Below are positions 34,725-59,080 of a DNA stretch of 64,000 nucleotides, piece after piece. The DNA lies in IMG/VR virus record IMGVR_UViG_3300026291_000001, positions 311 through 64,310 of that record; one strand, given 5' to 3'. The notes beneath the pieces were generated by a model. The model had not been told where the DNA came from, made no database searches, and saw nothing but the letters and a program-made list of their open reading frames with translations. How positions within the stretch are numbered: position 1 is the first letter of the stretch; each line of letters starts with the position of its first letter. The stretch is from a virus. The translations under genes were made by a program, and so were the position numbers.

Positions 34725-34760
34725 TTCAAGCAGCCTGCATACTGGCTTGGTAAGTATGAC
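34725..34760 (+). CRISPR. solitary Cas12m-type repeat
   Basis: AGCCTG CATACT GGCTTGGTA AGTATG AC (core 34732-34760), perfect 6-bp stem, same architecture as the repeats after cas12m. Confidence 0.8.
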
Positions 34761-34913
34761 GGGTTTCATTTTTTTCTTTAACGCGAGAATTTCATTTTTT
34801 CTTTTTAATAAATTACTATAATGTATATGTGGCAATAGGGGGATACCCCGAAAACTCCTTCAGTAAGAGCTGTGCCACTAACCTTAAACTGAAAACTTAA
34901 CTGGAGTTTTATT

Positions 34914-35087
34914 ATGAACACATCAAGAACCGCGCTTTACCGGCACTACGATAAGCAAAACATTTTGCTTTATGTAGGCATTTCGCTCTCGGCTACCTAT
35001 CGCCTTAGACAGCATCAATCAAGTGCTCAATGGGTTACGGATGCAGTGCGCATGGAAACTATGTGGTTTGATAAGGAATCCGCATGA
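34914..35087 (+). pseudogene. truncated GIY-YIG endonuclease (57 aa)
   Basis: TALYRHYDKQNILLYVGIS...RLRQH; ATGA-coupled to the next gene. Confidence 0.6.
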
Positions 35088-35413
35088 ACGCCACTGCCTT
35101 CGACACGCACGAATTTGTTAAGAAATTAAAAGGCGTAGGCTTCAGTGAGGAACAAGCCGAAGTCTTAACCGAACTGCAAAAAACCACCGTAGTCAACACA
35201 CTGGAACAGGCTCGGCATGATTACGAGCTGGATAATCTGGCTACCAAAAGGGATTTAAAAGAATTTGAACTGACGGTTAGTCTGCAATTTAAACAAGTTG
35301 ATGTAAAGATAGCCGAAACTAAAGCCGAATTAATCCGTTGGGTGGTAGCTGTTGGTTTATTACAGACAGTGATTATTACCGGCTTGATTTTGCGCTTGAC
35401 GGGGAAAATTTGA
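35084..35413 (+). CDS. DUF1640/CCDC90-like membrane-anchored coiled-coil protein (paralog 1 of 3)
   Basis: AFDTHEFVKKLKGVGFSEEQAE...LATKRDL...C-terminal TM. Confidence 0.85.
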   Translation: MNATAFDTHEFVKKLKGVGFSEEQAEVLTELQKTTVVNTLEQARHDYELDNLATKRDLKEFELTVSLQFKQVDVKIAETKAELIRWVVAVGLLQTVIITGLILRLTGKI

Positions 35414-37308
35414 TGATCATAGTCCGGAACTACGGCCTTTTACCTCCCGATAATTGGGGAGACGATTGTCACGAACAGTTATTCATGATGAGCAAGTTCT
35501 GGAATCAGCTTGTTGAAATAGACCACGCCGACCGTGAGCGTTATCGCGCTATTCTTACCGAAGACCCGGAAGTAGCAACGCTGGAAGTCCGTCTTTTTGA
35601 AACATCCGAACAACTGTTAAGTTTATCGACCGAGCGTAAAAAACTCAGATCATCCGCGCGTTCTAAAAATGTGGATGACGGCCTGCTTGTGGAGCGGATT
35701 AAAATCCTGCGCGAGACTGAGAAATCAATCAAGGCTCAACTAAAACTAAGTAGGGCAGCGAAGCGGGAAGCGTCAAAACCTGCCTTGGATGCGCTTAATG
35801 AAGCCCATAAAGCCACCGTTAAACAGGCTCGGAAAACATGCGGCTTATTCTGGAGTAATTACAATGCCGTCCTTGAATCCTACCAGGCAGCTCGTACCAA
35901 GGCCATGAAAATAGGCGTCGATCTGCGCTTTCGAAGGTTTGACGGGTCCGGTCGCTTTGTCAATCAGGTTCAGGGTGGTATCGATGTCTCGGAGTTCATG
36001 CACGGTACTTATAGTATGGCAGGTATTGATCCCGAACTATTTCCGGTCCTTGGACGTAGCGGGAAAGACCGGCCACGGTTGCATATAACAGCATTTACAG
36101 GCCATGACGCAGAGGGTAAGCACTTTCGGCGCACCTTAAGCTTTCCTGTTATCCTGCACCGTCCGATACCAGAAGAGGTTAACGGGTATCCGGTACGCAT
36201 AAAAACGCTGACCGTATCAAAGAAACGAGTCAGCGCCGGACACTTCGACTGGAGCTTGACATCCTCCACCAACTTAAAAAGCGTGGATTCCCAAGTACAG
36301 CCTTTCATGCCCGAAAGGGATGACTCTGAAAGTCATCTTACTTCACCCCAGCCCGGAGTTAATCCTGATGAGGTGAAAATACGCAGCAACAGCGTACCCA
36401 ACAAATTAAGTATAGTACAAAACGCTTTTATTTATAGGTTGACCATTACCGCGACGACTGATGGTGAAGCGATAGCTAATGCAAGCCCGGTAGCGGCAGG
36501 CGTTAACCTGGGCTGGAAGCGGGAAGGCCAAGCCTTACGGGTTGCCACGATTTACGATAGCAACGGCGATAGCGAACATTTTAGACTTCCGGCCACGTGG
36601 ACGACTGCCATGGATTACGCGGAATCGCTACGCGGAGATATTGATGAAGTTACCAACTTAATGTTTACGGCGTTACTGGCGCAAAATATTGAATCGGAAT
36701 TGCTGACTAAAGCCAAGCGCCCACACCCTGCCTTAATTAACCGCTTTGCACGTGAAGCTGAAATACGGCCCATGCTACAGGCACATATTATTACCAAGGA
36801 ACTGGTTATTGAATCTATAGCTATGCTACCGGCGCTCAATGCGCTACCGTGTTATCTAGCGTGGTCACGTTATAAAGAGCGCGAGTTTAGCGGTTTAAGA
36901 ACCCGGCTACTTGGGCAACGCAAAGACTTATACCGGAACATTGCGGCTACATTAGCCAGTCGTTATTCAGTTATTGCAATCGACAATGCCGACTATGCGA
37001 AAATGGCCCGGTTGGAATCACGGGGCGGCGAGGAAAATGACTTGTTAAAGATTGCCCGGACGAACCGGTTCAGGGTATCTCCTTCTGAGCTGCGTTTGTC
37101 GATTGAGCAGGCGATAGCCAAGAGCGGCGGCGTAGTCGAACGGGTCGGACAGCAAAACGAATGCGCGAATTGTGGCAGGCCCGATAAACAAGATACAATA
37201 ATCTGGAAATGTGGGCATTGCGGGGCGGTGTATGACCAAGATGAAAACATGGCGAAATTGTTGATTCGTGGGTATCTTCCTGAGCAGTCAAAGGGTGCGA
37301 CAGGGTAG
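35413..37308 (+). CDS. cas12m: Cas12m (type V-M / V-U1)-like effector, predicted nuclease-dead
   Basis: 631 aa; YGLLPPDNW, long REC coiled coil, FWSNYNAVL...LRFRRFDGSGRFVNQVQGG, RuvC GVNLGW / IAIDNAD / YDQDENMA, zinc finger CANCG...CGHCG; repeats start directly after the stop codon. Confidence 0.85.
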   Translation: MIIVRNYGLLPPDNWGDDCHEQLFMMSKFWNQLVEIDHADRERYRAILTEDPEVATLEVRLFETSEQLLSLSTERKKLRSSARSKNVDDGLLVERIKILRETEKSIKAQLKLSRAAKREASKPALDALNEAHKATVKQARKTCGLFWSNYNAVLESYQAARTKAMKIGVDLRFRRFDGSGRFVNQVQGGIDVSEFMHGTYSMAGIDPELFPVLGRSGKDRPRLHITAFTGHDAEGKHFRRTLSFPVILHRPIPEEVNGYPVRIKTLTVSKKRVSAGHFDWSLTSSTNLKSVDSQVQPFMPERDDSESHLTSPQPGVNPDEVKIRSNSVPNKLSIVQNAFIYRLTITATTDGEAIANASPVAAGVNLGWKREGQALRVATIYDSNGDSEHFRLPATWTTAMDYAESLRGDIDEVTNLMFTALLAQNIESELLTKAKRPHPALINRFAREAEIRPMLQAHIITKELVIESIAMLPALNALPCYLAWSRYKEREFSGLRTRLLGQRKDLYRNIAATLASRYSVIAIDNADYAKMARLESRGGEENDLLKIARTNRFRVSPSELRLSIEQAIAKSGGVVERVGQQNECANCGRPDKQDTIIWKCGHCGAVYDQDENMAKLLIRGYLPEQSKGATG

Positions 37309-37311
37309 TGG

Positions 37312-37413
37312 TAAAAATAGCCTGCACAGTGGCTTGGTGACTGTGACGGCAAGTAATATAACTTACCTTATGGATGGTAATAACAGCCTGCACAGTGGCA
37401 TGGTAATTGTGAC
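37312..37413 (+). CRISPR. mini CRISPR array 1 (2 repeats, 1 spacer)
   Basis: Cores 37319-37347 AGCCTGCACAGTGGCTTGGTGACTGTGAC and 37385-37413 AGCCTGCACAGTGGCATGGTAATTGTGAC; 37 nt between cores. Confidence 0.88.
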
Positions 37414-37435
37414 GTATGTACATCGGCATAAACCC

Positions 37436-37495
37436 TAAGCGACACACCGTATCAGACTGTCGCTTAATTAACACACTGTTACCATCTGTTAATTA
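37436..37495. repeat. two abutting 31-bp inverted repeats (9-13-9)
   Basis: TAAGCGACA-N13-TGTCGCTTA and TAATTAACA-N13-TGTTAATTA. Confidence 0.7.
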
Positions 37496-37567
37496 GGCTT
37501 CGTAGGCATTGAATTAGTTGTACTTCTTTATTTAAAGCGCTATACTAATTAACACAATTAACGATAT

Positions 37568-38140
37568 ATGCTCAAATGTTATCATAAGATGAATATAGTC
37601 GAGGCCGCCAACAAGACCGAGATAGCGATGGTACATGGGTTACTGACTCGGAAGTACCCGCGCCTTTATGCTGATATTTGGAAAGTAGGCGTTAACCTGT
37701 CCTTGCGTATTTCTGATTTATTGGCGATAAAGTATGCCGATCTCAACGTCAGCAAACGTAGCCTAAAACTAATTGACAAAAAAACCAGTAAACCCAACGA
37801 AGTGCGCTTGAATAATACCGTGATGGATATTATTAACCAGCGCCGTAATGACTACCCCAATGATGAGTGGCTGTTTCAGGTCCACAGTTCTCGCGCTAAC
37901 AACAAACCTATTTCCAGAGTAGCGGTCGCCGTGGCTTTTAAAAAAGCGGGCGAACAACTAGGCTTAACCATCAATACCCATAGTATGCGTAAATCACGCG
38001 GCATGGCTTTATTCGAGGATGGTGTTCCCGTGGAAATGATAGCCAAGGTATTGAATCATACAAATCCCTTGCATACGTTAAGGTATTTAGGGATTACGAA
38101 AGAAAAAGTGTTAGCAACTTATGATCTGTATGAACTGTAA
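37568..38140 (+). CDS. tyrosine recombinase (catalytic domain only; resolvase/integrase-like)
   Basis: LSLRISDLL, KKTSK, THSMRKSRG, LNHTN...TLRYLG: R-K-H-R-H-Y set present. Confidence 0.9.
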   Translation: MLKCYHKMNIVEAANKTEIAMVHGLLTRKYPRLYADIWKVGVNLSLRISDLLAIKYADLNVSKRSLKLIDKKTSKPNEVRLNNTVMDIINQRRNDYPNDEWLFQVHSSRANNKPISRVAVAVAFKKAGEQLGLTINTHSMRKSRGMALFEDGVPVEMIAKVLNHTNPLHTLRYLGITKEKVLATYDLYEL

Positions 38141-38192
38141 TGCCGCTGGCTGACTAATCAGGATGAAGAACATACGCCATAACAATTGCTGG

Positions 38193-38513
38193 CTATTTTT
38201 GGGCTAGAGGGTTTGACGGGGTGAAAGCAAGAGCACAGGCATTCAATTGGCCTTTCATGGCCTCATCCCAAGTTTCATAGCGCCACTGTGAATCTTTATG
38301 TTTGCCGCCGAATATCATAGTTTCAAACAGCCAGGGCGGCCCTTTACTGGAATGGTTATGGTTCAGCCCGAGGAACACGGTGGACACACGGATACCATCA
38401 TGTTCTTCGACAGCCATAATCCGATCGTCGCTATCAATATATTCCGCCCATTCCAGCATTGTGCAAGGGACAGGTTTATGTCCGTCCAGCCTGAAAAATT
38501 GAGCTTGCATCAC
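38193..38513 (-). CDS. conserved phage hypothetical protein
   Basis: RVSTVFLGLNHN...PWLFETMIFGG...RYETWDEA pattern. Confidence 0.65.
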   Translation of the reverse strand: MMQAQFFRLDGHKPVPCTMLEWAEYIDSDDRIMAVEEHDGIRVSTVFLGLNHNHSSKGPPWLFETMIFGGKHKDSQWRYETWDEAMKGQLNACALAFTPSNPLAQK

Positions 38514-39418
38514 ACCACTTTCTGATAGCGATTATTCGACATCACTTTAACCAGTAATTGACCGGCGATAATCAACCGCTGCCAGGACCTTTTATAGCTC
38601 TCGCAGATAATCAACAGCTCGGCGACAATCTGCTCATCGTCATAACTGCTCATATCCTGCATGGCCAACAAATTTATAAGCTCGGCACGCGTCAGGTTTA
38701 CCTCGCTGCGTCGTTCAGGCGTATTGACTAAAGCGGGTTGCCAGACGGATGCTTCGGTAGTGGTAATGGGTTCAGTAAACGCTTTATCCAACTGTTCTAT
38801 ATCACTGAATACATCAACCTGGGCAGGAACAGGTTTACTCATTGCGACATTATTAACCACGGGCACGACATACCGGCCCCTTTCCGCAAGCGGTACTTTA
38901 TCAATATTATCAAGAACCGTCTGTGACCGTTGCTTGTTATAGCCCTCAATGTGCACGACTCTCAGCTTATCGATCATGGCCAGCACATCGTTATAACTTA
39001 TATTCTTGCGCTTGATGTCATGATAGAGATTGTCGGCAAATCCGGCGTTGAGCGTCCGGCTTAATTCATAAAAAACCGTCTTTCCGATACCCACCTTATT
39101 TAGATCGGTAATGTTATGCTTCTCGGCAAACTTACCCGCCAATACCATGCGGCTAATATTTTGAAAACTATCATCGATATTATATTTATCGCGCATGGTA
39201 TTGATATATCCTTCAAAGCCGTTTTTTCCTTTTTCAGAAAAGCGTTGGCTTAGTTCCCAATACAGACGCCATTTCACTAAAGCGGATTGGTTATCGACTT
39301 GTTCAATACGCTCCAGTAGTGCTTCCTTGTCCAGTTTCTTTATGCCATCCATGGAAAATATATTGACTGGCGTGCTGTATAAATCTTTTGTTTCTTGTAC
39401 AAAGGTATTTTTATTCAT
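38510..39418 (-). CDS. hypothetical protein
   Basis: 302-aa ORF, divergent from the Cro-like gene. Confidence 0.65.
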   Translation of the reverse strand: MNKNTFVQETKDLYSTPVNIFSMDGIKKLDKEALLERIEQVDNQSALVKWRLYWELSQRFSEKGKNGFEGYINTMRDKYNIDDSFQNISRMVLAGKFAEKHNITDLNKVGIGKTVFYELSRTLNAGFADNLYHDIKRKNISYNDVLAMIDKLRVVHIEGYNKQRSQTVLDNIDKVPLAERGRYVVPVVNNVAMSKPVPAQVDVFSDIEQLDKAFTEPITTTEASVWQPALVNTPERRSEVNLTRAELINLLAMQDMSSYDDEQIVAELLIICESYKRSWQRLIIAGQLLVKVMSNNRYQKVV

Positions 39419-39630
39419 TATTTTTTCCTTTTATAGCATAAGTAGTATATAGCTTACAGAGCTTATTGTTCATTTAAGCATAAAAATGAACAAATATAAA
39501 CAAGTACTATTTTTTATATATTTCTTGAACTTAAAACAACTTATAGTTGCCGTTAATCATCAGTTAATTAATAATACAACTGAGATTAATAATTAACTCT
39601 AAATGACTTAAGAATGACAGAGACAAGCTT

Positions 39631-39924
39631 ATGCTAAAGAGCGAAATGATTAAGTTATTCGGATCAACACAAGAAGATGCCGCCAAAGGGCTGGGTATAA
39701 CCCGATGCAATATTAGTAAATGGCCGGAAGTATTAACATGGTCACAAGAGCAAAAGGTTAGAGAGGCGTTAATACGCTTGAATAGTAAGTTACCGGATAA
39801 CTTGGATAGACGCAAACAGGAAATTAAGAGCGTCCCGGAAAAACCAGACGATTCTTTTGAAAAGGTTACAAACGAAATTATCGCTGTGTTTCAGTACTGC
39901 ATTACTAGCTATATTGTGTCCTGA
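39631..39924 (+). CDS. Cro-like HTH regulator
   Basis: MLKSEMIKLFGSTQEDAAKGLGITRCNISKW. Confidence 0.75.
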   Translation: MLKSEMIKLFGSTQEDAAKGLGITRCNISKWPEVLTWSQEQKVREALIRLNSKLPDNLDRRKQEIKSVPEKPDDSFEKVTNEIIAVFQYCITSYIVS

Positions 39925-40021
39925 TTTATCCACATTTTCTGTGGATAATTGCTTACAATTTAGCTCATGATAACACGCCGAATGTGCTTTACCGTCAGAT
40001 TGACCAGTTTTTATCCAAACC

Positions 40022-40258
40022 ATGCTCACGATCTATTATTTCAGGTTATCAACCAATGTACTGATCGGCTCGACCAATGAGAAGAAAATAAGGTTGCTCG
40101 CCTGTTGCAAGCCGGTTTTTAGTTGCGATATTGCAGATTTTAATAGACTGCATGGAAAGCTGATAAACAAAGACTGGAACGGCATGTATACAGCGGCCTG
40201 CGTGGAGCAATTAAATTTCAACCTGCCCAAACTGGGCTATCCGGTTTTCAACTGCTAG
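40022..40258 (+). CDS. hypothetical protein
   Basis: 78-aa ORF in the apparent operon. Confidence 0.35.
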   Translation: MLTIYYFRLSTNVLIGSTNEKKIRLLACCKPVFSCDIADFNRLHGKLINKDWNGMYTAACVEQLNFNLPKLGYPVFNC

Positions 40259-40267
40259 GACGACAAT

Positions 40268-40600
40268 ATGCACTCTCAAGCAAATTTAGCAAACGACCGG
40301 CTATGCCGTTTATTGATATTCACCCTGATGGCGGTTTTGTTACTCCTGTTCATTACCTCCTGCGCGATTGTCAGTTATAACGCTGCGCCGGATGGTACAA
40401 CTAAAGTTAATTTATATTCTCTGGGATCAGATAAAATCATGGAAGATTTTAAGGCGAGCATCAGTAAAACTGGCGAGAGAAACTTATCGATTGGTTCTTT
40501 TGACGCCAATCAAACAGAGGGCTTGAGACAAGTCAATGAAGGCATGAAGATGATTGTCGAAGGCGCGGCCAAGGGCACCGTATCGGGCTTGAAGCCTTAA
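40268..40600 (+). CDS. putative lipoprotein
   Basis: Hydrophobic segment ending LLFITSC. Confidence 0.5.
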   Translation: MHSQANLANDRLCRLLIFTLMAVLLLLFITSCAIVSYNAAPDGTTKVNLYSLGSDKIMEDFKASISKTGERNLSIGSFDANQTEGLRQVNEGMKMIVEGAAKGTVSGLKP

Positions 40601-41025
40601 TCCGGGAAAAACCCGTCATCAATAATCTGATCAAATGACCAGGGGCATGATTCCGGAAAGCTATCCAATCCGGTTTCTTTGATGGCTTTCATAATCGCAT
40701 CACCATAAACACCAGATAACCAGTCATCCTGGGTTAAATCATGTTTTAAACTGGGTGTTCTTTTAAAGCACCTTAGTATTTGCTTGCGCTGCTCCTTAAT
40801 GGTTCTTAGCCAGCTATTACCTCGCCTATCCGGTTGATAGTGCCATTTCAATAAATGGGCTATTAACAACGAGGAGCGATGCTCAAGCTCCAAATGATAG
40901 CTTGCGCCCATATCCAGCAGTTCCTCATAAAGGTTATCAATATCCAGGTGATCAAATTCACCGGCTTGCAAAAAGTTGGCTTGTTCCTTAGCCCAGGTCA
41001 GCACATCTTCTTTGTAGTCCATCAT
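40597..41025 (-). CDS. DUF29 family protein
   Basis: DYKEDVLTWAKEQA.FL...LDIDNLYEEL..MG...LLIAHLLKWHYQP...SW..TIKEQR. Confidence 0.85.
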   Translation of the reverse strand: MMDYKEDVLTWAKEQANFLQAGEFDHLDIDNLYEELLDMGASYHLELEHRSSLLIAHLLKWHYQPDRRGNSWLRTIKEQRKQILRCFKRTPSLKHDLTQDDWLSGVYGDAIMKAIKETGLDSFPESCPWSFDQIIDDGFFPD

Positions 41026-41294
41026 TCAAAATCCTCATCCGGCACAATCGCCACATCGCCCACAATGGTATGCGTGGCGTGTTCAGGATTCTTGCTACGA
41101 TACAGCGCCGTAGCTTTGGGATTTAACGGCAAGCCTTTAAGGTGCCCATCATCATCAACCAGCATGACGTGAACACGATCCGGCAGCAGTATTGAGTCAG
41201 TACAGTCAACATTAATTAGCTTTGCCAACTCCTTAAGGGGTTTTTGCCCTTCTATCTGGATCTCGGCGCCGTTACTGCGGATTATTTTTCTCAT
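41022..41294 (-). CDS. hypothetical protein (DUF3846-like)
   Basis: MLVDDDGHLKGLPLNPKATALY...IVGDVAIV. Confidence 0.6.
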   Translation of the reverse strand: MRKIIRSNGAEIQIEGQKPLKELAKLINVDCTDSILLPDRVHVMLVDDDGHLKGLPLNPKATALYRSKNPEHATHTIVGDVAIVPDEDFE

Positions 41295-41512
41295 TCCTGT
41301 ATCTCCAGGCGGCGCTCGATACGATCCAGGCGTTTATCAAAATTATCCAGGCGATTGTTAATTTTCGCTAAATTGACATGCAGGCAAGCTGTCGATTGCT
41401 CCAATGAGGATACCCTGGCGGTTAGCACATTCGCCTTTCTTTCGATACCATCTACTATCAAACGGATATACTGCAAGTGCTCAAGTACGATGTTGGTGGC
41501 TTCGGCTGTCAT
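41291..41512 (-). CDS. small coiled-coil protein (paralog 2 of 4)
   Basis: MTAEATNIVLEHLQYIR...RLDRIERRLEIQE. Confidence 0.7.
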   Translation of the reverse strand: MTAEATNIVLEHLQYIRLIVDGIERKANVLTARVSSLEQSTACLHVNLAKINNRLDNFDKRLDRIERRLEIQE

Positions 41513-41909: not shown

Positions 41910-42009
41910 AATATATAGTCATTGTTATAGTTAATGTTGCGCATACCTATATTTTAGCATACAATAGAGCCTCCCATCGAAAGAAAAATATTTCCAAGAG
42001 GTTTTTCCC

Positions 42010-44703: not shown

Positions 44704-45798
44704 ATGAACATTCAAATTAAAACCTTAAAAGTTAGAATCCGCGATAAACATGCAGATGTTTTGAATCGCATGTCTTTTGAAGTCAATCAAGTCTGGAATG
44801 CAGCCAATGAAACGTCTGCTGAGTTCGCTTGGGTTCCAGTGCCTGAAGTTGGCTATATGAATATGCAGACATCCGGTTTTGACTTAATGAAGGAGCTGAA
44901 AGGAATCCGCAAAGAACGAAGTATGATTATCAGTGCTAGAACTGTTCAGGAAGTAATAGCCGTCCACGCCAAGACCCGCAAACAATTCAAGAAAGACAAA
45001 CTAAGGTGGAGGTCTTCAGGTGGAGCAAGACGCGCTTTAGGATGGGTTCCTTTCAAGTCTGGATCGGCTTGTTGGATAAATGGTCAAGTCAGGTTCTGCG
45101 GTATCTATTTCAAGTGTTGGGATAGCTACGGCTTAAGCCAATACGATTTTAGAAGCGGCTGCTTCTCTGAAGATAGTCGAGGCCGCTGGTATTTCAATAT
45201 CGTAGTGCATGTCGAGGAAGAAGTCAGGCTATCAGAAGGTGGTCAGATAGGCATTGATTTAGGACTTAAGACAACGGCAACCTGTAGCAATGGCGTAGTA
45301 TTGGAACGTAAACAGTTTTATCGTAATTTAGAAGAAAAACTAGGCAAGGCACAGCGAGCTAATAAGAAGAAACTGGTTAAAACGATACATGCAAAAATTA
45401 AGAACCAACGGCTTGATGCGAATCATAAATTTAGCCGTAAAATAGTAAATGAAAACAGTTTAATAGTAGTTGGCAATGTAAGCAGTTCAGGTCTGGCAAA
45501 AACCAAGATGGCTAAGTCCGTTCTTGATGCAGGCTGGTTCATGCTAAAAACGATGATTGATTATAAATCGAAAGCGATGCAATCAGCGTTCATAGAAGTC
45601 AATGAAGCATACACTACTCAAGCGTGTTCGTGCTGTGGCTGTATAAGCTCCAGTAGTCCGAAAGGTAGACGCGATCTTGATGTAAGAGAATGGACTTGTG
45701 CCGAGTGTGGCACCGAGCATGATAGAGATATTAATGCGGCTAAGAATATTCTCTCTCTGGGACATCAGAGACTAGCAGTAGGAATCCTCTCCCTTTAG
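44704..45798 (+). CDS. tnpB: TnpB with apparently rearranged RuvC-II
   Basis: GIDLGLK, IVVGNV (no canonical E), VNEAYTTQACSCC, HDRDINAAKNI; right end GGAATCCTCTCCCTTTAGAGAGAGGAGGATGTCAA at 45781-45815. Confidence 0.9.
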   Translation: MNIQIKTLKVRIRDKHADVLNRMSFEVNQVWNAANETSAEFAWVPVPEVGYMNMQTSGFDLMKELKGIRKERSMIISARTVQEVIAVHAKTRKQFKKDKLRWRSSGGARRALGWVPFKSGSACWINGQVRFCGIYFKCWDSYGLSQYDFRSGCFSEDSRGRWYFNIVVHVEEEVRLSEGGQIGIDLGLKTTATCSNGVVLERKQFYRNLEEKLGKAQRANKKKLVKTIHAKIKNQRLDANHKFSRKIVNENSLIVVGNVSSSGLAKTKMAKSVLDAGWFMLKTMIDYKSKAMQSAFIEVNEAYTTQACSCCGCISSSSPKGRRDLDVREWTCAECGTEHDRDINAAKNILSLGHQRLAVGILSL

Positions 45799-48170: not shown

Positions 48171-48263
48171 ATGATCCAGGCACAAGTAAAACTTAGGCTC
48201 AACGTCATTCAGTCATCATTACTGGATGGATGGTTATTTATGCTCACCGGAGATTTATCATGA
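48171..48263 (+). pseudogene. tnpB: tnpB N-terminal stub (30 aa)
   Basis: MIQAQVKLRLNVIQSSLLDGWLFMLTG resembles the N-terminus of a TnpB subfamily; an IS605-type right end is present at 48863-48897. Confidence 0.6.
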
Positions 48264-48856
48264 CGGAATTAGAAACAGCTTGGCTTGCTGGCATTCTTGA
48301 AGGCGAAGGATGTTTTAGCTGGTATGCATCAACACGGGAGTATGGTAAACCCACAGTTAAGCTTGCTATGAGCGACTTCGATATTGTTGAACGTGCAGCT
48401 AAAATAATGGTGGCAAAAACCGTAAGGCCAGTAAAGACGGATAGGCCGGACAGATTGGAAAGTCTTAATTATAAACCCATGTTTAAATGCTGTGTTTCTA
48501 CAACAAAGGCAGCGGTATTAATGGAAAAAATTCTTCCTTATATGGGAGAGCGTAGAAGCGCGAAAATTAAAGAATTGCTTGATTTGTGGGTAAAAAGGCC
48601 AGGATATAAGGCAACAAGTTTGGCTATACGATCTGGAAATGTAGCTAGATGGGATAAACAAAGTTTGCCTGTTAGCACACTTAATATCATTGAAGAACTC
48701 TCTATAAGTGGTTTGTCACAGTATAAAATTGCTGACAAACTGAATCAGGAAAGCGTACCTACCAGAACAGGTGTTGGTAAGTGGTCTCAAACACAAGTAG
48801 GCCGAACACTACGTTTAGGACAGCCCTCGAATGGAATTATGCAAAATGTCGCGTAA
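48260..48856 (+). CDS. LAGLIDADG homing endonuclease with C-terminal HTH
   Basis: AWLAGILEGEGCF, VKLAMSDFDIVER, ILPYMGERRSAKI; C-terminal IADKLNQESVPTRTG.GKWS.TQV. Confidence 0.85.
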   Translation: MTELETAWLAGILEGEGCFSWYASTREYGKPTVKLAMSDFDIVERAAKIMVAKTVRPVKTDRPDRLESLNYKPMFKCCVSTTKAAVLMEKILPYMGERRSAKIKELLDLWVKRPGYKATSLAIRSGNVARWDKQSLPVSTLNIIEELSISGLSQYKIADKLNQESVPTRTGVGKWSQTQVGRTLRLGQPSNGIMQNVA

Positions 48857-51715: not shown

Positions 51716-53944
51716 ATGTTTTCAGATACCGAACGCGAACCCGAAGACCTTCTACAAGAACAAGAAGGCTTGTCTTTAGAACGCTTTACCAAGTTCTTTC
51801 ACGAGATTCTGCACCAGCCAGCATGGCGACGAGAAGCGGACCGGGAAGCGGATTATAAGGACGGCAATCAAATATCGGCGGAAGTTCTTGAAAAGATGAA
51901 GCGGATCGGGATGCCGCCCGCCGTTGATAATGTTATAGCAGTCGCCATTGAGTCTATCCTGGGCATGGAAGCCAAGAAAAGAACCGATTGGCGGGTGATA
52001 CCGGACTCAGATAAGGAAGGCCAGGAGGTTGCCGACGCCTATAACTACAAACTCAGTCAGGCCGAGCGTAAAAGCCGCGCTGACCGTTCCTGCTCGGATG
52101 CCTATGAGTCACAAGTGGGAGTTGGCATTGGCTGGGTCGAAGTCTCACGGGAACCGGACCCGTTTAAATACCCGTACCGCTGCACCTTCGTCCATCGCAA
52201 CGAGATTTGGTGGGACTGGAAAGCGAAAGAATCCATGCTAGACGATGGCCGGTACTTGATCAGGATGAAATGGATTGATAAGGATATTGCTAAGCTCATG
52301 TTTCCGGATCACGCCGACCTGCTGGAATACTCAATCTCAGGCTGGACCGGCTTTGATGCGTTCATGTTGGATGGCGGTAAGTCTACGAATCTGGTCATGG
52401 CGAACGACGTTGAGCGTGGCTGGACGATAGAGGAACAGGAATGGCGCAACATAGAGCATAAGCAAATACGGTTGTTCGAGGTCTGGTATCGGGAATGGAG
52501 TAATGTCCTGGTATTGAACATGCCCGATGGCCGCGTCGTGGAGCTGGATCAGGACAATGATATGCACATGATGGCCGTGGCTTCGGGGATACAACCAGAG
52601 TATAAAATTATAAGCAAACTCAATAAATCATTTTGGGCTGGACCCCATAAGTTGGAAGACACCCCGTCTCCTTATTTGCATCATCACTTCACGTATGTAC
52701 CATTCTGGGCGCATAAGGAAGACCGTACCGGCGTTCCCTTTGGGCGAATCAGGGGAATGATGTTCGCGCAAGACAATATCAATGCGACGATCAGTAAAAT
52801 ACGCTGGGGCTTATCGGCTACGGTTACCACACGCACCAAAGGAGCTGTGTTATCTACCGATTCTAATTTCCGGACCAATATCAGCCGACCAGATGCCGAC
52901 GTGATCCTCGATCAGCAACACATGTCCATGCCCGGCGCCACGTTTAAGGTAGACCGAAACTTTGAGCTGAACGAACAGCAATACAAAATGCTGCAAGACG
53001 CCCGGTTATCGGTGAAAAACTCAGGCATAAGCGATGAGTTCCAGGGTAATAACAACACCTCAACCAGCGGAGTGCAGTTTAACGCGCAGGTTGAACAGAG
53101 CAACCAAAACCTGGCCAACGTCGATGATAATTTCAAGGAATCGCGCTCACAGGTCGGTGAATTGCTGTTAAGTATGATTATCCAGGACGATATCGGCAAG
53201 CCGCAGGAAGTCAAGATACCCGGTTCGGTGTTGAAAGAGGATAAGGTGATACAGCTCAATCAACCTATTACGGATGAAGACGGTTTTCAGTATTTGAATA
53301 ACGACGTAGAACGGACTATTTTGAAAGTTGACCTCGAGGAGATTCCTTCCAACGCCAGCTACCAGTCCCAGCAATTAGCCGCACTAAGCGAGGCTTTTAA
53401 GGCCGCTCCACCAGAATATCAACGGATTATTCTTCCCCACATGTTACAGCTTTCCAATATCCCGGATAAGCAAGATATCATTTCACAAATAAAAGCTGCC
53501 GACTCACAACCCAGCCCTGAACAGCAAGCTATTGAGGCTAAACTCAAAGAGATTGAGATCAAGCAGATGTTGGCTGATGCGCAGATTAAGACGCTTGAAG
53601 CAACGGCTACCAAAACCCTTGTTGATGCTCAGTTTGCAAGTATGCAGGCTGGTTCTCAGGTGGTGCTCCAACCTGCTATCGCGCCGGTAGCTGATCAGGT
53701 TCTTATCAATGCAGGTTATAGAGAGCCAATTAATCCTCCAGGCCAAGACCCCGGATTTAGTAATCAGCCTTACCAGCAACCGCAACAACCGACACAACCT
53801 TCTCCTGAAGCCCAGCAACAAGCAAGGCTAGGACAGCAACAGTTAACACCAAACACCTCGCCACAAAGCCCAGCCGTGCCACAACAGGCAGGTTCGGCAC
53901 AGGCCGGTATTGAAACATCACGAAATGAAAATATGGGAGCCTAG
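51716..53944 (+). CDS. portal protein (P22-like)
   Basis: PAWRREADREADYKDGNQ, VGVGIGWVEV, FTYVPFW, SGVQFNAQVEQS; follows terL. Confidence 0.88.
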   Translation: MFSDTEREPEDLLQEQEGLSLERFTKFFHEILHQPAWRREADREADYKDGNQISAEVLEKMKRIGMPPAVDNVIAVAIESILGMEAKKRTDWRVIPDSDKEGQEVADAYNYKLSQAERKSRADRSCSDAYESQVGVGIGWVEVSREPDPFKYPYRCTFVHRNEIWWDWKAKESMLDDGRYLIRMKWIDKDIAKLMFPDHADLLEYSISGWTGFDAFMLDGGKSTNLVMANDVERGWTIEEQEWRNIEHKQIRLFEVWYREWSNVLVLNMPDGRVVELDQDNDMHMMAVASGIQPEYKIISKLNKSFWAGPHKLEDTPSPYLHHHFTYVPFWAHKEDRTGVPFGRIRGMMFAQDNINATISKIRWGLSATVTTRTKGAVLSTDSNFRTNISRPDADVILDQQHMSMPGATFKVDRNFELNEQQYKMLQDARLSVKNSGISDEFQGNNNTSTSGVQFNAQVEQSNQNLANVDDNFKESRSQVGELLLSMIIQDDIGKPQEVKIPGSVLKEDKVIQLNQPITDEDGFQYLNNDVERTILKVDLEEIPSNASYQSQQLAALSEAFKAAPPEYQRIILPHMLQLSNIPDKQDIISQIKAADSQPSPEQQAIEAKLKEIEIKQMLADAQIKTLEATATKTLVDAQFASMQAGSQVVLQPAIAPVADQVLINAGYREPINPPGQDPGFSNQPYQQPQQPTQPSPEAQQQARLGQQQLTPNTSPQSPAVPQQAGSAQAGIETSRNENMGA

Positions 53945-53946
53945 AT

Positions 53947-54123
53947 ATGAGATTCCAACCCGAAACTACTAACGATTATTCACAATTCAACGAAGAACTG
54001 GGTTACTGTTCCAACTGCTTTGGAAGTGCGGAAGGGAATATTTCAGGCGACCGCTGCACAGTTTGCAACGGCTCCGGCATGGAACCCAATGGCAACGAGG
54101 ACGATAATGATGATTTCGACTAA
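53947..54123 (+). CDS. small zinc-finger protein (58 aa)
   Basis: CSNCFGSAEG...CTVCNGSG DnaJ-type CxxCxG motifs; acidic tail; not in the ORF track. Confidence 0.55.
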   Translation: MRFQPETTNDYSQFNEELGYCSNCFGSAEGNISGDRCTVCNGSGMEPNGNEDDNDDFD

Positions 54124-54136
54124 ACCGGAAGCACAA

Positions 54137-54673
54137 ATGAGTATTCAAACGATGATCGATGACGTTCTAAAGAAAGAAGGCGGATATACTGATAATCCAT
54201 TAGATCATGGAAAATGCACTAATATGGGCATCACCCTATCCACACTGGACGAGTTTACCGGAAAAAAAAATGGTAAGGACAACATCAAGGCACTAAGCCA
54301 GGCTGATGCCTGGCATATTTACTACAATAATTACTACATCAAGCCTGCTATCTATTCACTGCCGTCAGCGCTACAACCGCTTATCTTCGATATGGCCGTC
54401 AACCAAGGCCCTCACAGCGCCATTAAACTGCTGCAACTTGAATTAAAAACCCTGGGCTATATGTACCGCGCTGCCGATGGTATTAACGGACCAATCACTA
54501 TCGCCGCTTCAAAAAAAGCTATCAATGATCTAGGCGCTAAGTTTATTAATAGCGTGGTCAACCGGCGTATTGATTTTTATCATGCCATTGTCGAAGCCAA
54601 GCCCAACCAATCGATGTTTTTAAAAGGCTGGATCGCCAGGGCGGAAACTTTTAGAGAGCATGAAACTGTGTAA
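54137..54673 (+). CDS. endolysin, glycoside hydrolase family 108 with peptidoglycan-binding domain
   Basis: LKKEGGYTDNPLDHGKCTNMGIT, FDMAVNQGP, DGINGPIT, FLKGWIAR. Confidence 0.9.
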   Translation: MSIQTMIDDVLKKEGGYTDNPLDHGKCTNMGITLSTLDEFTGKKNGKDNIKALSQADAWHIYYNNYYIKPAIYSLPSALQPLIFDMAVNQGPHSAIKLLQLELKTLGYMYRAADGINGPITIAASKKAINDLGAKFINSVVNRRIDFYHAIVEAKPNQSMFLKGWIARAETFREHETV

Positions 54674-55924
54674 ACAATCACCTACCTGAAGGAAGGTGCT
54701 TTTATGGTAACTAAAATCGTTCCACATTAGGGCGGCTTACCGCACCCCTTGACGGACTGAAAAGCCTGTCAAACTTAGCAATATTCGACGCCGCATTGAC
54801 GTCGCTGTGGGATAAGTGACCACAGTTCTTACAGGAAAATTTATGTTTTACACGAGTACCGATAGCATCACAGACCGAGCAGGATTTGGAGGTATAAGCG
54901 GGATTAATGTATTTAATCTCGATACCGACCGCTTGTGCTTTGTAGGCAACAAAATCTTGAAGCTGTCTAAACGACCAGCGATGCAAGCGAGAGCGAACGC
55001 GCCTACCGGCTTTGATGTTATCGCGAATGTTGGTCAAGTCCTCAAGCCTGATTTCACTGGCATTGTAGGCAATGGCTTCTTGAACAATCGCTTTGGATAT
55101 TTCGTGGTTTACGTGTTTTACATGGGCTACTTCTTTGCCGGAGATTTTCTTCAGCAATTGCTTTGCCGAATTAGAACCGTTGCGTTGAAGTCTCTTGCGG
55201 TGCGCCAAGAACTTGTCTCGTTTATGGCGCAGTTCGCCACCACCAAACACCTTTCCGGTGCTGGTTGCAGCGATATTATTTTCACCAACATCAACACCCA
55301 TAGAGCCGTTTCCGGTACTGGGTGTAGCGTCGGGTATGTCAATAACCAGATTGAAGTACCACTGGCCTTTTCGTTTAAGCAATTCTGCTTCTTTGGCAAT
55401 ACCAGAGTTAAGCAGGTTAGCTTGATGCTTACCCAATATGTAATTGACTGCTATGCGGCCATCCAGCGTGAACAGGGAAATAACTTCTTTCTTGAACGAA
55501 TAGGTACGCTTATCAAAGTGCACGGAAGACGTTTGTTTAAAGCTGATAACCGGCCAGTCTTCTTTTTTGAGCTTGGGTTCATTAGCTACCAAGGACTTGT
55601 AAGACTGGGCAACATTAGCAATGGCATTACAGACCATTTGGGAGCCAAGAGCAGGCACTTGTTCCCTGACAGAATAGTAGCAAAGATGGTGCAAAGCTAC
55701 CCGATTCGAGCATTTGACGTGTGCGGAAAAACCAACCGCAATGTTACAAGCGTTAGAAAATTCAACTTGCAAAGCGTCGAGTTTAACGCTTTGTTCGATG
55801 GTTGGATCAAGCTTGATAGACACTGTTTTTTTCATATAGGAAACTATAGATTAGAAACAGCAAAAGATCAAGAGCACTCCTTACCTCCCCGCCCTAAAGA
55901 GACGGGGTATCACGGAGCTTTCCG
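54670..55924 (-). mobile_element. IS200/IS605-family element (tnpB only)
   Basis: Minus-strand left end CGGAAAGCTCCGTGATACCCCGTCTCTTTAGGGCGGGG after TCAT; right end AAAGCACCTTCCTTCAGGTAGGTGATTGTTTAC. Confidence 0.85.
54711..55835 (-). CDS. tnpB: TnpB RNA-guided endonuclease
   Basis: GVDVGE, RLEDLTNIR, HSDVNAASNI (D-E-D intact), CSVC...CKNC. Confidence 0.93.
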   Translation of the reverse strand: MKKTVSIKLDPTIEQSVKLDALQVEFSNACNIAVGFSAHVKCSNRVALHHLCYYSVREQVPALGSQMVCNAIANVAQSYKSLVANEPKLKKEDWPVISFKQTSSVHFDKRTYSFKKEVISLFTLDGRIAVNYILGKHQANLLNSGIAKEAELLKRKGQWYFNLVIDIPDATPSTGNGSMGVDVGENNIAATSTGKVFGGGELRHKRDKFLAHRKRLQRNGSNSAKQLLKKISGKEVAHVKHVNHEISKAIVQEAIAYNASEIRLEDLTNIRDNIKAGRRVRSRLHRWSFRQLQDFVAYKAQAVGIEIKYINPAYTSKSCSVCDAIGTRVKHKFSCKNCGHLSHSDVNAASNIAKFDRLFSPSRGAVSRPNVERF

Positions 55925-56113
55925 ATGATGTTTAACCAAACGGACAAAACCATGACCCCAAGCGAACATGCTACTTATGAAAAAATGCTGGAATTAATAC
56001 GGGACGCGCCGACCGATGAAGCCGCTTACAATGCGTCTGAAGTGTTATCGGTGCTGATGCATACGATAGTGATGCGGGTTGAGTCTGGGGTTAAGATGCC
56101 TAAAGAGGTCTAA
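55925..56113 (+). CDS. hypothetical protein
   Basis: 62 aa; a GGAG 5' of the ATG is supplied by the IS left end. Confidence 0.5.
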   Translation: MMFNQTDKTMTPSEHATYEKMLELIRDAPTDEAAYNASEVLSVLMHTIVMRVESGVKMPKEV

Positions 56114-56128
56114 ATCAGTAGCCCATTA

Positions 56129-56299
56129 GTCACAATTATGAAGCCATTGTGCAGGCTGTTGCTGACTCGAATATGCATCTAAGTACGTCACAATTACGAG
56201 GTCACTGTACAGGCTCTGACTTAAAAGTTAAATTTACCAAGCCAATTTACAGGCATTACGAGTGTCACATTTTCGATGCCAATGTACAGGCTTGAGTTT
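56129..56299 (-). CRISPR. delocalised mini array 2 (4 degenerate Cas12m-type repeats)
   Basis: 29-nt cores at 56129-56157, 56187-56215, 56227-56255, 56264-56292; inter-core gaps 29, 11 and 8 nt; all keep the 6-bp stem on the minus strand. Confidence 0.8.
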
Positions 56300-56442
56300 A
56301 TACTGTACCACCCGGACGGCTGACAACAATCCGGGCTTAACACTTTTAAAACACCCCCCTTAAACCGCCAAGTTCGAGGGGCTTATAACCCTATACCGCG
56401 CCTGTATTATAGCAGGTTCCAGAGAATTTAAACATGCGTTTT

Positions 56443-56715
56443 TCATACCGGTTTCACCAGATAGGCAATCGTCAACACAAGCAATATTTCCATGCCGATT
56501 ATCAGCGCTATGTTGAATAACAGCCTGCGTTCAAACTTCACCAGATCAAACGAGGTAAACAGTGTTTCCTTGGGTAACTCAGGCGGTATCGCGACAATAT
56601 CCTGCTTAATGGCCTCTACCAAGCCGCGCGTAATCGCTCCAGCAAGTTCTGTTTGCATCCCTTTATCCTCAAGGCTCTGCCTGAATTTTTGGGTATCAAA
56701 ATTGAGAGCGCTCAT
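56443..56715 (-). CDS. DUF1640/CCDC90-like protein (paralog 3 of 3)
   Basis: LNFDTQKFRQSLEDKGMQTELAGAI...TSFDL...TM. Confidence 0.7.
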   Translation of the reverse strand: MSALNFDTQKFRQSLEDKGMQTELAGAITRGLVEAIKQDIVAIPPELPKETLFTSFDLVKFERRLLFNIALIIGMEILLVLTIAYLVKPV

Positions 56716-56718
56716 CGC

Positions 56719-56886
56719 TCAATTATCCGTCTGGTTCCTGTTGGTTGGCTTGGCGTGTGTTTTGGTAATATGTTCACGCACTAAATTATCTATTATCAAG
56801 GTTAATGACAGCTCTTGTTCACTAGATAACTGTTTTAACAGCGTCCATGTTTTAGCTCTTATTCTTACCGTTTTATGTTCTATCAT
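56719..56886 (-). CDS. small RHH-like DNA-binding protein (55 aa)
   Basis: KTVRIRAKTWTLLKQLSSEQELSLTLIIDNLV; not in the ORF track. Confidence 0.45.
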   Translation of the reverse strand: MIEHKTVRIRAKTWTLLKQLSSEQELSLTLIIDNLVREHITKTHAKPTNRNQTDN

Positions 56887-57056
56887 AAAATTATGCCTAC
56901 ATAATGGCTACATTGTGTATAATAGTATAACACAATTATTTGGTAGACAAGTATACATTAAGTGAACAAATTGACAAAAACAACACCCACCGCTGGCACG
57001 GTGGGCCTTACAACACAACAACCGTCTGAATTATAGCAGACGATAGAGAGTTTAAA

Positions 57057-58346
57057 ATGATCATTGAAATATTCGATAGGCCGATAGCATTCCATAGATG
57101 TTTTGTTCCATTAACTGGATCAATTACAGCAGCTCTTATGTTATCACAGGCAATTTATTGGAGTAACAGAACCAAAAATAATGATGGATGGTTTTATAAA
57201 ACTCAAGAAGAATGGTTAGATGAAACAGGAATGAGCAGGAGTGAACAAGAAAAAGCCAGGGATAAACTACGTTGTACCGGGTTTTGGTTTGAAGAAAGGC
57301 GAGGCGTACCAGCAAAACTATTTTTTCGCGTAGATGAAAAAGAATTGTCAGCTAAGGTACATGGACAAAAACGAATTGTCGTTATGGAAGATGTATTGAA
57401 ACATTCAAAAAGAAGCTTGTTAGGGCTTTCTAAAACAAGTCTCATGCGAGCCATTAAAATAGGTGTTAACTCTGAATACGTAGATTATTCCAAGGTATTA
57501 GAAGAACATGGAATGCACTGCCATATCTGCGACCAAGCAATAACTAACACACTGGGACAACAACCAGATGCTTTATGTTTTGATCATGTTAAACCTATTG
57601 TTTTAGGCGGTGCTCATGTCTACGAAAACATAAAACCAGCGCATTTTAAATGCAATGGAAAAAAAGGTGGTAATTTTGAAGAAAAAGACTCGAATACCAA
57701 TGAAATTAAGAATGATTACGCTAAACATACTGATAAAATCCAGTCTGCTTACACTAAGCAGACTGGAGTGCTTACCGTAAACACTCAGGAGTGCTTACCC
57801 AAAGCAGACAAGAAGGATTACAGTAAACAGACTATTACAGAGAATACATCAGAGAATACATCAGAGAAGGTTGTTGTTGGCAAAACCGAAAATTCTTATT
57901 CTGAATCGATTGAACAAAACAAGGCCCTGAAAAAATGGCTCGAATATTTTATGAATGTAAAAGGCTATGCGCTGGTTGAGGTACAAACAGTCGATACAGT
58001 TCCTATGTTTCTGGAATGGGAAAAAATAGGAGTTACTGATGACGATATGGTATTTGCCGAGTTGGCAATAACGAAGTCGTTGAAAGGAAAGCGTCCTGTA
58101 ACGCCACTGTATTACAGGCAGATAGTACAAGATATTGTTGAAAAACGAAAAAGCCAGAACACCGCTAGAAACGGGTCTGGCTCCAATTCAAATAAAACTC
58201 ATAACCACGGTGATAATCATGAAAGACAAGGATACAACAATGAAACCCATTCTTCAACTGGTAGGAAACAATCTGCAATTGAAAGAATGGCAGCAAACTC
58301 AAGAGAACTCAGAGAAATACGGGCGCAAGAATCCAGAGTTATCTGA
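57057..58346 (+). CDS. replication initiator (lambda O-like wHTH) with an in-frame HNH domain
   Basis: RPIAFHRCF...AALMLSQAIYW...WFYKTQEEW..ETGMSR.EQ N-terminus; CHICDQ...FDHVKPIVLGG.H..ENIKPAHFKCNGKKG; ENTSENTSE linker. Confidence 0.8.
   Translation: MIIEIFDRPIAFHRCFVPLTGSITAALMLSQAIYWSNRTKNNDGWFYKTQEEWLDETGMSRSEQEKARDKLRCTGFWFEERRGVPAKLFFRVDEKELSAKVHGQKRIVVMEDVLKHSKRSLLGLSKTSLMRAIKIGVNSEYVDYSKVLEEHGMHCHICDQAITNTLGQQPDALCFDHVKPIVLGGAHVYENIKPAHFKCNGKKGGNFEEKDSNTNEIKNDYAKHTDKIQSAYTKQTGVLTVNTQECLPKADKKDYSKQTITENTSENTSEKVVVGKTENSYSESIEQNKALKKWLEYFMNVKGYALVEVQTVDTVPMFLEWEKIGVTDDDMVFAELAITKSLKGKRPVTPLYYRQIVQDIVEKRKSQNTARNGSGSNSNKTHNHGDNHERQGYNNETHSSTGRKQSAIERMAANSRELREIRAQESRVI
57747..57833 (+). 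repeat. putative origin iterons inside the initiator gene
   Basis: TTAC-N3-AA-N-CA motif with TTAC at 57749, 57772, 57795, 57818 (23-bp period) and one more at 57716. Confidence 0.6.
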
Positions 58347-58905
58347 TTCTGCAATTTTGTTCATTTGGGAAAAAATGACGGTTATCTATGCGGATCAATG
58401 GTTATCGCGTAATGGTCTGTTACATGAAAATGGAAAATATACCGCAGCGGCTAAGGAATGGGCAGAAACTTTGGCAGGTTTAACAGCTAGGCAAATAAAA
58501 TCAGGTTTTGATGCACTGAGAAAAAATGGGGAGGAATGGCCGCCCAATGCTATCAAGTTTAGAAAACTATGCCTAAGCCTGGAACTGGAAAGCTTACCGA
58601 CCGTTAACGAGGTTTACAACATACTGGCTTACAACAAAAACAAGCAAGGCAGCATCAAAGATCGGTTCGAGCATCCACTCGTGTTTAGCATAGCTAATGC
58701 AGTTGATCTGCAAAAGGTAAGATATGAAAGCTTGAAAACAGCCATGCAGCTCATAACCCCGGTTTATGATCGACTGATAAAACAAGGTTGGCCCGATTGG
58801 AAGCCTGAGCATTTGTTAACGCCTGCACTCATCGAGAAAAAGCCCACGGAAGTCAATAGCAATATAGCCCGTAAGTCATTTGCCGAGATGAGGAAATCAT
58901 TATGA
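58219..58905 (+). CDS. replication protein P-like helicase loader
   Basis: IWEKMTVIYADQW...EWAETLAGLT.RQIK.GF...WPPNAIKFRKLC. Confidence 0.7.
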   Translation: MKDKDTTMKPILQLVGNNLQLKEWQQTQENSEKYGRKNPELSDSAILFIWEKMTVIYADQWLSRNGLLHENGKYTAAAKEWAETLAGLTARQIKSGFDALRKNGEEWPPNAIKFRKLCLSLELESLPTVNEVYNILAYNKNKQGSIKDRFEHPLVFSIANAVDLQKVRYESLKTAMQLITPVYDRLIKQGWPDWKPEHLLTPALIEKKPTEVNSNIARKSFAEMRKSL

Positions 58906-58994
58906 GCGATAATACTTATTACACTATCAAGACATCTATGGCAAAAGTCGCCGATAACATAGAGCGCATGATGGAGTATGTTACGAGAACATAC

Positions 58995-59080
58995 GTCACA
59001 ATTATAAAGCCACTGTGCAGGCAAGATTAAATTATATGGCTACCGTCACAATTACAAAGCCATCGCGTAGGCAGATTAGA
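58995..59080 (-). CRISPR. delocalised mini array 3 (2 Cas12m-type repeats)
   Basis: Cores 58995-59023 and 59045-59073, 21 nt apart; minus strand TGCCTGCACAGTGGCTTTATAATTGTGAC and TGCCTACGCGATGGCTTTGTAATTGTGAC. Confidence 0.8.

Follow-up and report, generated by a model that had tools for sequence, protein, structure and literature searches.

Nine Dispersed Type V-M Repeats in a Phage Encoding Cas12m: Candidate Hard-Wired crRNA-Handle Modules

Introduction

Cas12m is known as a plasmid-borne silencer that works with ordinary CRISPR arrays. This paper describes a 64,000-nucleotide stretch of viral DNA (the window, bases 311-64310 of IMG/VR record IMGVR_UViG_3300026291_000001, a single contig of 64,913 bp whose record was handled as that of a virus), in which a cas12m gene is accompanied by nine copies of a CRISPR repeat at four loci. 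Seven of the copies lie outside the array adjacent to cas12m, up to 21.8 kb away. A first-pass annotation, made from the DNA alone, had described these repeats as a genome-distributed guide network; the distribution amounts to four loci, and the "genome" consists of a single 65-kb phage contig. The reading that we lean to, with some reserve, is that the nine elements are hard-wired modules carrying a CRISPR RNA (crRNA) handle that binds Cas12m, some of them with guides and some guide-less.

The type V-M effectors MmCas12m2, GoCas12m and MsCas12m (PDB 8hhl, 8pm4 and 23vw) represent a system that has been identified on plasmids, in some prophages and at one phage locus (10.64898/2026.09.14.751636). 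In the Cas12m2 crRNA structure, the 3' strand of a 6-bp helix spans positions -8 to -3 and is followed by A(-2) and C(-1), about seven 5' nucleotides being dispensable, and the heteroduplex comprises 17 bp (PMC10442227). The repeat-derived part of the GoCas12m guide is about 30 nucleotides (nt) long. Cas12m proteins with an N-D-D triad were shown to bind DNA flanked by a protospacer adjacent motif (PAM) without cutting it and to mature their own pre-crRNA (PMC11013384).

In other CRISPR types, repeats with regulatory roles have been described. Solitary repeat units (SRUs) are present upstream of cas12a in about half of the type V-A loci (Shmakov et al. 2023, 10.1101/2023.03.03.530964), and viral RNA anti-CRISPRs (Racrs) mimic host repeats against the host system (Camara-Wilpert et al. 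2023, PMC10651486). Guided by CreR RNA, Cas proteins repress the cas genes that encode them, and Cracr is the phage-borne anti-CRISPR counterpart (10.1101/2023.03.10.532045; 10.1101/2024.10.29.618823). Mini-CRISPR arrays carried by viruses take part in inter-virus conflict, according to the citation of Medvedeva et al. 2019 in PMC11656645. In the literature searched, solitary or regulatory repeats were described only for types I and V-A, and none were found for type V-M.

Identity, Fold, and Strand of the Repeats

Repeats of the same family form arrays directly after cas12m in five related contigs (L002, L006, L007, L001 and L008), where the spacers have a length of 32-37 nt. In L002 the array has a period of about 70 and ten repeats of 37 nt, L006 contains three repeats and L007 two, L001 combines mixed repeat types, and in L008 and L009 arrays are present on both sides of cas12m. 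From these cas12m-adjacent arrays only, a covariance model, R1, was built and run on the window with filters off. The nine copies were the nine best matches, with 48.7 to 19.4 bits, and the next ones (18.0 and 15.9 bits) were located inside open reading frames (ORFs). The rescan with a covariance model, which had been proposed together with the first-pass annotation, thus returned exactly the nine copies reported there, and their coordinates and strands were confirmed by inspection of the sequence. Judged by sequence, all nine copies belong to the type V-M repeat that is cognate to the phage's own Cas12m (35413-37308).

The pattern GCCTR-N6-G-N13-RAC is found ten times in the window, with 1.5 matches expected and ten reached in none of 100 shuffles; nine of the ten are the known copies. 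A loose pattern scan of the complete 64,913-bp contig revealed no additional copy. When viral, metagenome and genome collections were searched for the exact repeat pattern, nothing was found in IMG/VR, and the matches in L003 and L004 were rejected as chance, being inside a 696-amino acid ORF of an archaeal metagenome-assembled genome. Rfam families and tRNAs gave no match to the repeats.

All stems listed in the first-pass annotation were found to be correct, with 54 of 54 stem positions paired, seven of them as G-U, and the loop was confirmed to start with GGC in eight of the nine copies, the exception being 56187 with GAC. Each of the nine copies has the 6-bp helix with its 3' strand at -8 to -3, followed by A(-2)C(-1), and a second helix, in which the 5' triplet pairs with the beginning of the loop, is also present. 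In A3, a 37-column alignment used for the pairing statistics, 98.8% of the cells pair, compared to 89.4 +/- 2.0% after shuffling (0 of 500 shuffles reach the observed value), and pairing falls to 29-44% when the partner is shifted by 1-3 columns. The compensatory signal consists of six cells changed on both sides and ten further pair types. Among the remote cores, as many as about 8 of the 28 positions differ, and the most diverged copy, 56227, carries three double compensatory changes.

The pseudoknot helix (5' GCC with loop GGC) pairs in 26 of 27 cells within the window and is invariant, with the one break in 56187. In the arrays of the relatives there is covariation in both helices: no cell is left unpaired, double-sided changes occur at four pairs, and the pseudoknot triplets are CCG/CGG, UCC/GGA and GCU/GGC. 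It had been claimed that the copies keep the pseudoknot by covariation. This is correct for the 6-bp helix, which covaries within the genome, but not for the second helix, which never varies here and covaries only across relatives. The array of L001 (L001:11826-12236), located beside a 58%-identical Cas12m, contains three repeat types (CCGTGCTCAGCCGG..., GCCTGCTCAGTGGC... and TCCTGCTCAGTGGA...) and one hybrid. All of these types keep both helices, so drift of the repeat with the fold kept is normal in adaptation-less arrays.

On the opposite strand the seven G-U pairs turn into A-C mismatches, and the orientation of the relatives' arrays agrees with this; therefore, the strand of the repeats is fixed, as had been argued from the wobble pairs. 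In an alignment including the flanks, similarity among the nine copies is limited to about 29-30 nt, the flanks being unrelated. The conserved 29 nt or so match the crRNA layout of Cas12m2 and GoCas12m, so the phage core corresponds to the part of the repeat that is held by Cas12m. On the pairing statistics, the fold of the repeats is judged to be under selection, on the transcribed strand.

These features also bear on the idea that the copies are elements acting at the DNA level without a link to Cas12m, such as repetitive extragenic palindromes (REP), bacterial interspersed mosaic elements (BIME), IS200/IS605 hairpins, iterons, recombination sites of the replication module or terminators. 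The clusters occupy intergenic regions between convergent genes, the O-like and P-like replication genes (57057-58905) are flanked by arrays 2 and 3 as direct repeats, and the phage contains three tnpB genes, all of which would fit such elements. However, the sequence, including the unpaired bases, is that of the cas12m-adjacent CRISPR repeats of five related contigs, and a DNA-level element would not explain a set of G-U pairs that is lost on the other strand. Furthermore, the hairpins have no T-run after them, only nine copies exist, no copy is located at any tnpB 3' end and no Rfam match was obtained, which does not conform to REP/BIME, IS200/IS605 ends or TnpB omega-RNA. This explanation is considered very improbable. 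A link to TnpB was rejected, since the 374-amino acid TnpB by array 2 is part of a separate insertion (about 54670-55924) and R1 finds no repeat at tnpB ends.

The Cas12m Effector and Its Operon

The cas12m gene (35413-37308, plus strand) codes for a type V-M effector of 631 amino acids, and the locus contains no adaptation genes, being devoid of cas1, cas2 and cas4. Homology to solved structures extends over the full length of the protein, with E values of 3.6e-39 for 23vw, 2.4e-33 for UnCas12m4a (23vu), 5e-19 for Cas12m2 (8hhl) and 1.8e-12 for 8pm4, and the closest homologues (P0002-P0006) share 57-66% identity in BLASTP. In alignment A4, the RuvC triad is the non-canonical N-D-D (GVNLGW, IAIDNAD and DQDEN). 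A CxxC...CxxC zinc ribbon of the target-nucleic-acid-binding (TNB) domain is present, with C584, C587, C600 and C603 invariant in A4 and a weak match to PF07282. By analogy to the characterized proteins, the phage Cas12m is assigned to the N-D-D class and predicted to bind DNA without cleavage.

Between the conserved motifs HFDWS and TITATT, Cas12m carries an in-frame insertion of 61 amino acids (about 36256-36438), which is present in none of the seven homologues aligned in A4; TTGAC flanks the corresponding DNA at both ends. This segment may be a mini-insertion that the protein tolerates, or else a new loop of the wedge (WED)/RuvC region.

The plus-strand operon consists of a 57-amino acid GIY-YIG fragment, a gene for a small DUF1640/CCDC90-like membrane protein (35084-35413, plus strand; PF07798, E 6e-8), the stop codon of which overlaps the cas12m start, and cas12m. 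DUF1640/CCDC90-like proteins with a common N-terminal FDT motif are encoded directly upstream of cas12m both here and in L006 (L006:1861-2097), and a second DUF1640-like gene is located directly upstream of array 2. The DUF1640/CCDC90-like gene may be a recurrent companion of this Cas12m clade.

The Four Repeat Loci

The solitary repeat (34732-34760, plus strand; stem CATACT/AGTATG; R1 35.1 bits, E 1.2e-7) is located in the divergent gap between a minus-strand gene for a 73-amino acid protein (34468-34689) and the plus-strand cas12m operon. Downstream it is followed by GGGTTTCA and then a T-run. Within 34761-34810, two near copies of TTTCATTTTTT(T)CTTT were noticed 26 nt apart, the second of which directly precedes TATAAT at 34817-34822, which could be the promoter of the cas12m operon. 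Because the TTTCATTTTTT match has its mismatches at positions 2-3 of the guide, it lends no support to autoregulation directed by a guide. Array 1 (37311-37413, plus strand) starts 3 nt past the cas12m stop codon and consists of the repeats 37311-37347 and 37377-37413 (R1 44.5 and 48.7 bits), with a single 29-nt spacer (37348-37376) that is an imperfect palindrome.

Array 2 (56129-56292, minus strand) contains the cores 56264-56292, 56227-56255, 56187-56215 and 56129-56157, with R1 scores of 21.0, 19.4, 20.8 and 40.3 bits; the 28-nt cores, counted from GCC to AC, are separated by 9, 12 and 30 nt. It begins 151 nt past the stop codon of a minus-strand cassette (56443-56886) comprising a 55-amino acid ORF (56719-56886) and the 90-amino acid DUF1640-like gene (56443-56715), ahead of which a promoter-like TTGTCA-16-TATACT is found at 56977-56950. 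The 55-amino acid ORF is suspected to be a ribbon-helix-helix regulator, though Pfam gives no match; for a 62-amino acid ORF beside array 2 no homologue was found.

Array 3 (58995-59073, minus strand) contains the cores 59045-59073 and 58995-59023, separated by 22 nt, with R1 scores of 24.2 and 35.2 bits. It begins 165 nt past the stop codon of a minus-strand cassette (59238-59829), which consists of a BrnA-antitoxin-like gene (59461-59829; PF14384, E 8e-23) and a gene for an 80-amino acid coiled-coil protein (59238-59480). The latter protein is a paralogue of the 73-amino acid protein encoded beside the solitary repeat (40% identity, E 1e-13). The terminal "spacer" of array 3, 18-19 nt in length (58976-58994, minus strand; GTATGTTCTCGTAACATA), forms a 7-bp hairpin of its own. 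In both remote arrays the best-preserved repeat is the 3'-most one (40.3 and 35.2 bits). Every copy is co-oriented with its upstream genes, and the proposed position of the remote repeats was confirmed in that arrays 2 and 3 lie downstream of small minus-strand cassettes.

In three copies (34732, 59045 and 58995) a -10-like hexamer ends 7-8 nt before the GCC, compared to 0.28 copies expected at random positions (P ~0.002). These are TATAGT at 34720-34725 on the plus strand and, for array 3 on the minus strand, TGgCATAAT at 59080-59088 and TATAAT at 59031-59036. With a -10 box at this distance, transcription would then start at the handle itself. A generic scan for promoter and terminator consensus sequences performed no better than on shuffled sequences.

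The boundary of array 3 is marked by a small ORF that overlaps the stop codon of the P-like gene and shares 24 codons of homology with its L017 counterpart (alignment A5). The homology ends at 58975/58976, 18-19 nt past repeat 58995. In phages with related P-like (helicase-loader) genes, no repeats were identified at the homologous place; therefore, the remote loci are recent and lineage-specific, and array 3 with its cassette is an inserted block ending in a repeat plus about 18 nt. The length of this tail is close to the 17-bp heteroduplex of Cas12m2.

An insertion missing from related phages is also what would be expected if the remote copies were decaying relics of foreign cas12m loci, brought in with accessory cassettes by recombination and no longer used. 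DUF1640-like and BrnA-like genes are present near cas12m in L006 and L002 as well, which fits cassettes derived from other cas12m loci; the remote copies have lower R1 scores; and their spacers are absent or short, with no targets found. On the other hand, neutral decay should break pairs, while all stem positions hold and 56227 has changed in a compensatory manner, and conservation is confined to the handle bound by Cas12m, with unrelated flanks. Neither would -10 boxes at a fixed distance in three copies be expected of relics, and ordinary repeat-repeat recombination with loss of spacers leaves no back-to-back repeats. An origin as unused relics is regarded as possible, but unlikely.

Spacers, Guides, and Proposed Function

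Measured against the 37-nt repeat of the relatives, the spacers are 29 nt in array 1, 0, 3 and 21 nt in array 2, and 13 nt in array 3, compared to 32-37 nt in the relatives. Therefore, at least two units have no guide, and one falls below the 17 nt of Cas12m2. Near-identical repeats with uniform spacers of 32-37 nt, as in a canonical array, are not present, array 1 alone coming close. The proposal that the copies are delocalised crRNA genes forming a guide network is plausible for five or six units, but cannot hold for the two or three units with spacers of 0-13 nt.

We infer that the modules are transcribed, bound by Cas12m and processed, with targeting by some of them. Transcription would occur in the sense direction, as leader and trailer of the cas12m operon and as trailers of the two minus-strand accessory cassettes, and three copies would probably be transcribed from their private -10 box, with the RNA starting at the handle. 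The handle of about 29 nt would fold into the V-M helix-plus-pseudoknot and be bound by Cas12m. Units with at least 17-18 nt of unique sequence, namely those after 37319, 37385, 56187, 56129, 58995 and possibly 34732, could then serve as hard-wired guide RNAs that direct DNA binding and silencing without cutting, the target most likely being the host or a rival element. The units with 0-13 nt (56264, 56227 and 59045) cannot guide stable DNA binding; most likely these would bind Cas12m without a guide, either as a buffer for the protein or to mark or process the RNA in which they lie.

Several results count against such hard-wired modules. The spacers are irregular and mostly too short, and two of the candidate guides, those after 37319 and 58995, fold back on themselves into hairpins, an unusual property for a guide. 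With 8-nt seeds, the guides gave 17 matches to the phage itself, compared to about 18 expected by chance; window guides compared with the loci of relatives, and relatives' spacers compared with the window, showed no cross-match; and the guides of arrays 1 and 2 reached only E >= 0.2 in a phage collection. The remote copies score 19-40 bits with R1, compared to 44-49 bits for the cas-adjacent ones. In the relatives, no repeats were identified more than about 500 nt from cas12m within flanks of +/-10 kb, and, as described above, phages with related P-like genes lack them at the homologous place. For the weaker handles in isolation, the canonical hairpin is not the minimum-energy fold and gives no support, though this is expected for a pseudoknot stabilised by protein; the fold of array 2 in context is no better than that of shuffles (z = -1.0). 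Finally, no RNA run contained the phage sequence, with matches only in soil DNA metagenomes.

In further searches, the best ungapped 22-nt matches of the guides to the phage had 15-17 of 22 identical positions, 12-nt seeds with at most one mismatch were at chance level, and the L002 array had no match in phage and plasmid collections. The search for targets of the inter-repeat sequences, which had been suggested along with the first-pass annotation, thus gave no target in the phage, in the loci of relatives or in phage and plasmid collections.

The same results have to be considered for the possibility of a regulatory or decoy function, in which the solitary repeat and the clusters poor in spacers would yield crRNA-like RNAs that tune or sequester Cas12m, either that of the phage or one belonging to a V-M system of the host or a rival. 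In the clade, repeats recur upstream of the effector, mirroring the SRUs upstream of cas12a: L005 contains a single repeat, placed 32 nt ahead of the start codon, and L008 and L009 a two-repeat mini-array about 300 nt upstream of cas12m. Phage Cracr arrays and Racr decoys are known for other CRISPR types (10.1101/2024.10.29.618823, PMC10651486), and guide-less units are present in the phage, two of them wholly without guide and a third depending on the count. Yet PAM-proximal guide matches to the cas12m operon promoter region are at chance level, with a sole 8-nt seed match with a TTTT flank at 35245, inside the DUF1640-like gene, where one is expected by chance, and a sponge for the phage's own effector requires a timing argument. 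In the upstream regions of cas12m of the window and six relatives, no match of at least nine PAM-proximal guide bases to a cas or toxin promoter, as in CreR or Cracr, was found. CreR-like autoregulation of cas12m is not supported, since the promoter-region matches are at chance only. For tuning or sequestering as the main role, the likelihood is judged to be low.

Tentatively, and with little weight given to it, a further role can be considered, in which the phage uses its dead Cas12m to regulate its own transcripts and the repeat is a cis-acting RNA tag in the leaders and trailers of mRNAs. Binding and cutting by Cas12m at the tags would set the ends, stability or translation of mRNAs, including its own, and any tag with 18-30 nt after it would at the same time be a hard-wired guide.

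The Phage Genome

The window encodes the proteins of a tailed phage, with a large terminase, portal, major head protein, tail fibre, tape measure and endolysin, together with a lambda O-like initiator, a P-like helicase loader and a polyvalent protein of 3111 amino acids. The capsid protein is about 50% identical to counterparts of Pseudoalteromonas and Pseudomonas phages, and the host is probably a gammaproteobacterium living in soil. When viral contigs were searched for Cas12m, the P-like replication protein and the endolysin, close relatives were not found. By eye, the first 320 or so bases (G000 1-320) recur near the contig end (about 64520-64913) at about 90%, not 100%, identity; therefore, the genome is essentially complete, and the imperfect identity points to two strain variants joined in the assembly of a circular or terminally redundant genome.

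The same phage was present at low depth in four other runs. In run X2 (joint 59023 to 56187), a contig of another soil sample has a different 29-nt sequence between two repeats of the family; therefore, related arrays with other spacers are present in nearby communities.

Selfish elements are abundant in the phage, with three full-length tnpB genes (11458-12621, 44704-45798 and 54711-55835) and several HNH and GIY-YIG homing endonuclease genes (33325-34383, 48230-48856, 57057-58346 and 62620-63435), one of these being an HNH domain within the O-like replication gene. As direct repeats of like orientation, arrays 2 and 3 bracket a 2.7-kb block (56129-59073), within which the minus-strand cassette of the 55-amino acid ORF and the DUF1640-like gene is found along with the O-like and P-like replication genes. 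Together with the endolysin, this replication block sits oddly between the portal and head genes. Recombination between arrays 2 and 3 would excise the replication module.

Comparison to Known Systems

A phage without adaptation genes thus keeps a Cas12m-binding fold at four loci, with putative private promoters for some copies and no guides in others. If the RNAs are made and bound, this would reveal the way in which a programmable DNA binder becomes hard-wired in a virus. A system of protein-RNA tags could also emerge, with control over phage transcripts or titration of the effector as its role; the regulatory uses of CRISPR repeats known from SRU, Racr, CreR and Cracr would be extended to type V-M, and compact natural handle variants would become available for Cas12m tools.

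Like other type V-M systems, the phage locus contains a compact effector with a non-canonical RuvC triad (N-D-D), no cas1, cas2 or cas4, and a co-oriented array directly downstream, the repeat of which consists of a 6-bp helix and a pseudoknot ending in AC. It differs in having one regular spacer by cas12m, the extra 61-amino acid insertion in Cas12m, and seven repeats outside the locus that are degenerate and have irregular spacers or none.

With the virus-borne mini-arrays, as far as these are described in the citing source, the phage shares arrays of one or two spacers and the absence of adaptation genes; whereas those arrays use host Cas proteins and have spacers matching related viruses, the effector here is viral and the spacers are without match. 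As for CreR, CreA and Cracr, short arrays with degenerate repeats and short spacers are located off the main array, sometimes in multi-unit transcripts. In contrast to CreR and Cracr, a PAM-flanked partial guide match to a cas or toxin promoter is not above chance in the phage. With the SRUs and Racrs, the phage has in common single or spacer-poor viral repeats that keep the Cas-binding fold, and a solitary repeat upstream of the effector. Unlike in the case of Racr, the cognate effector is encoded by the phage itself.

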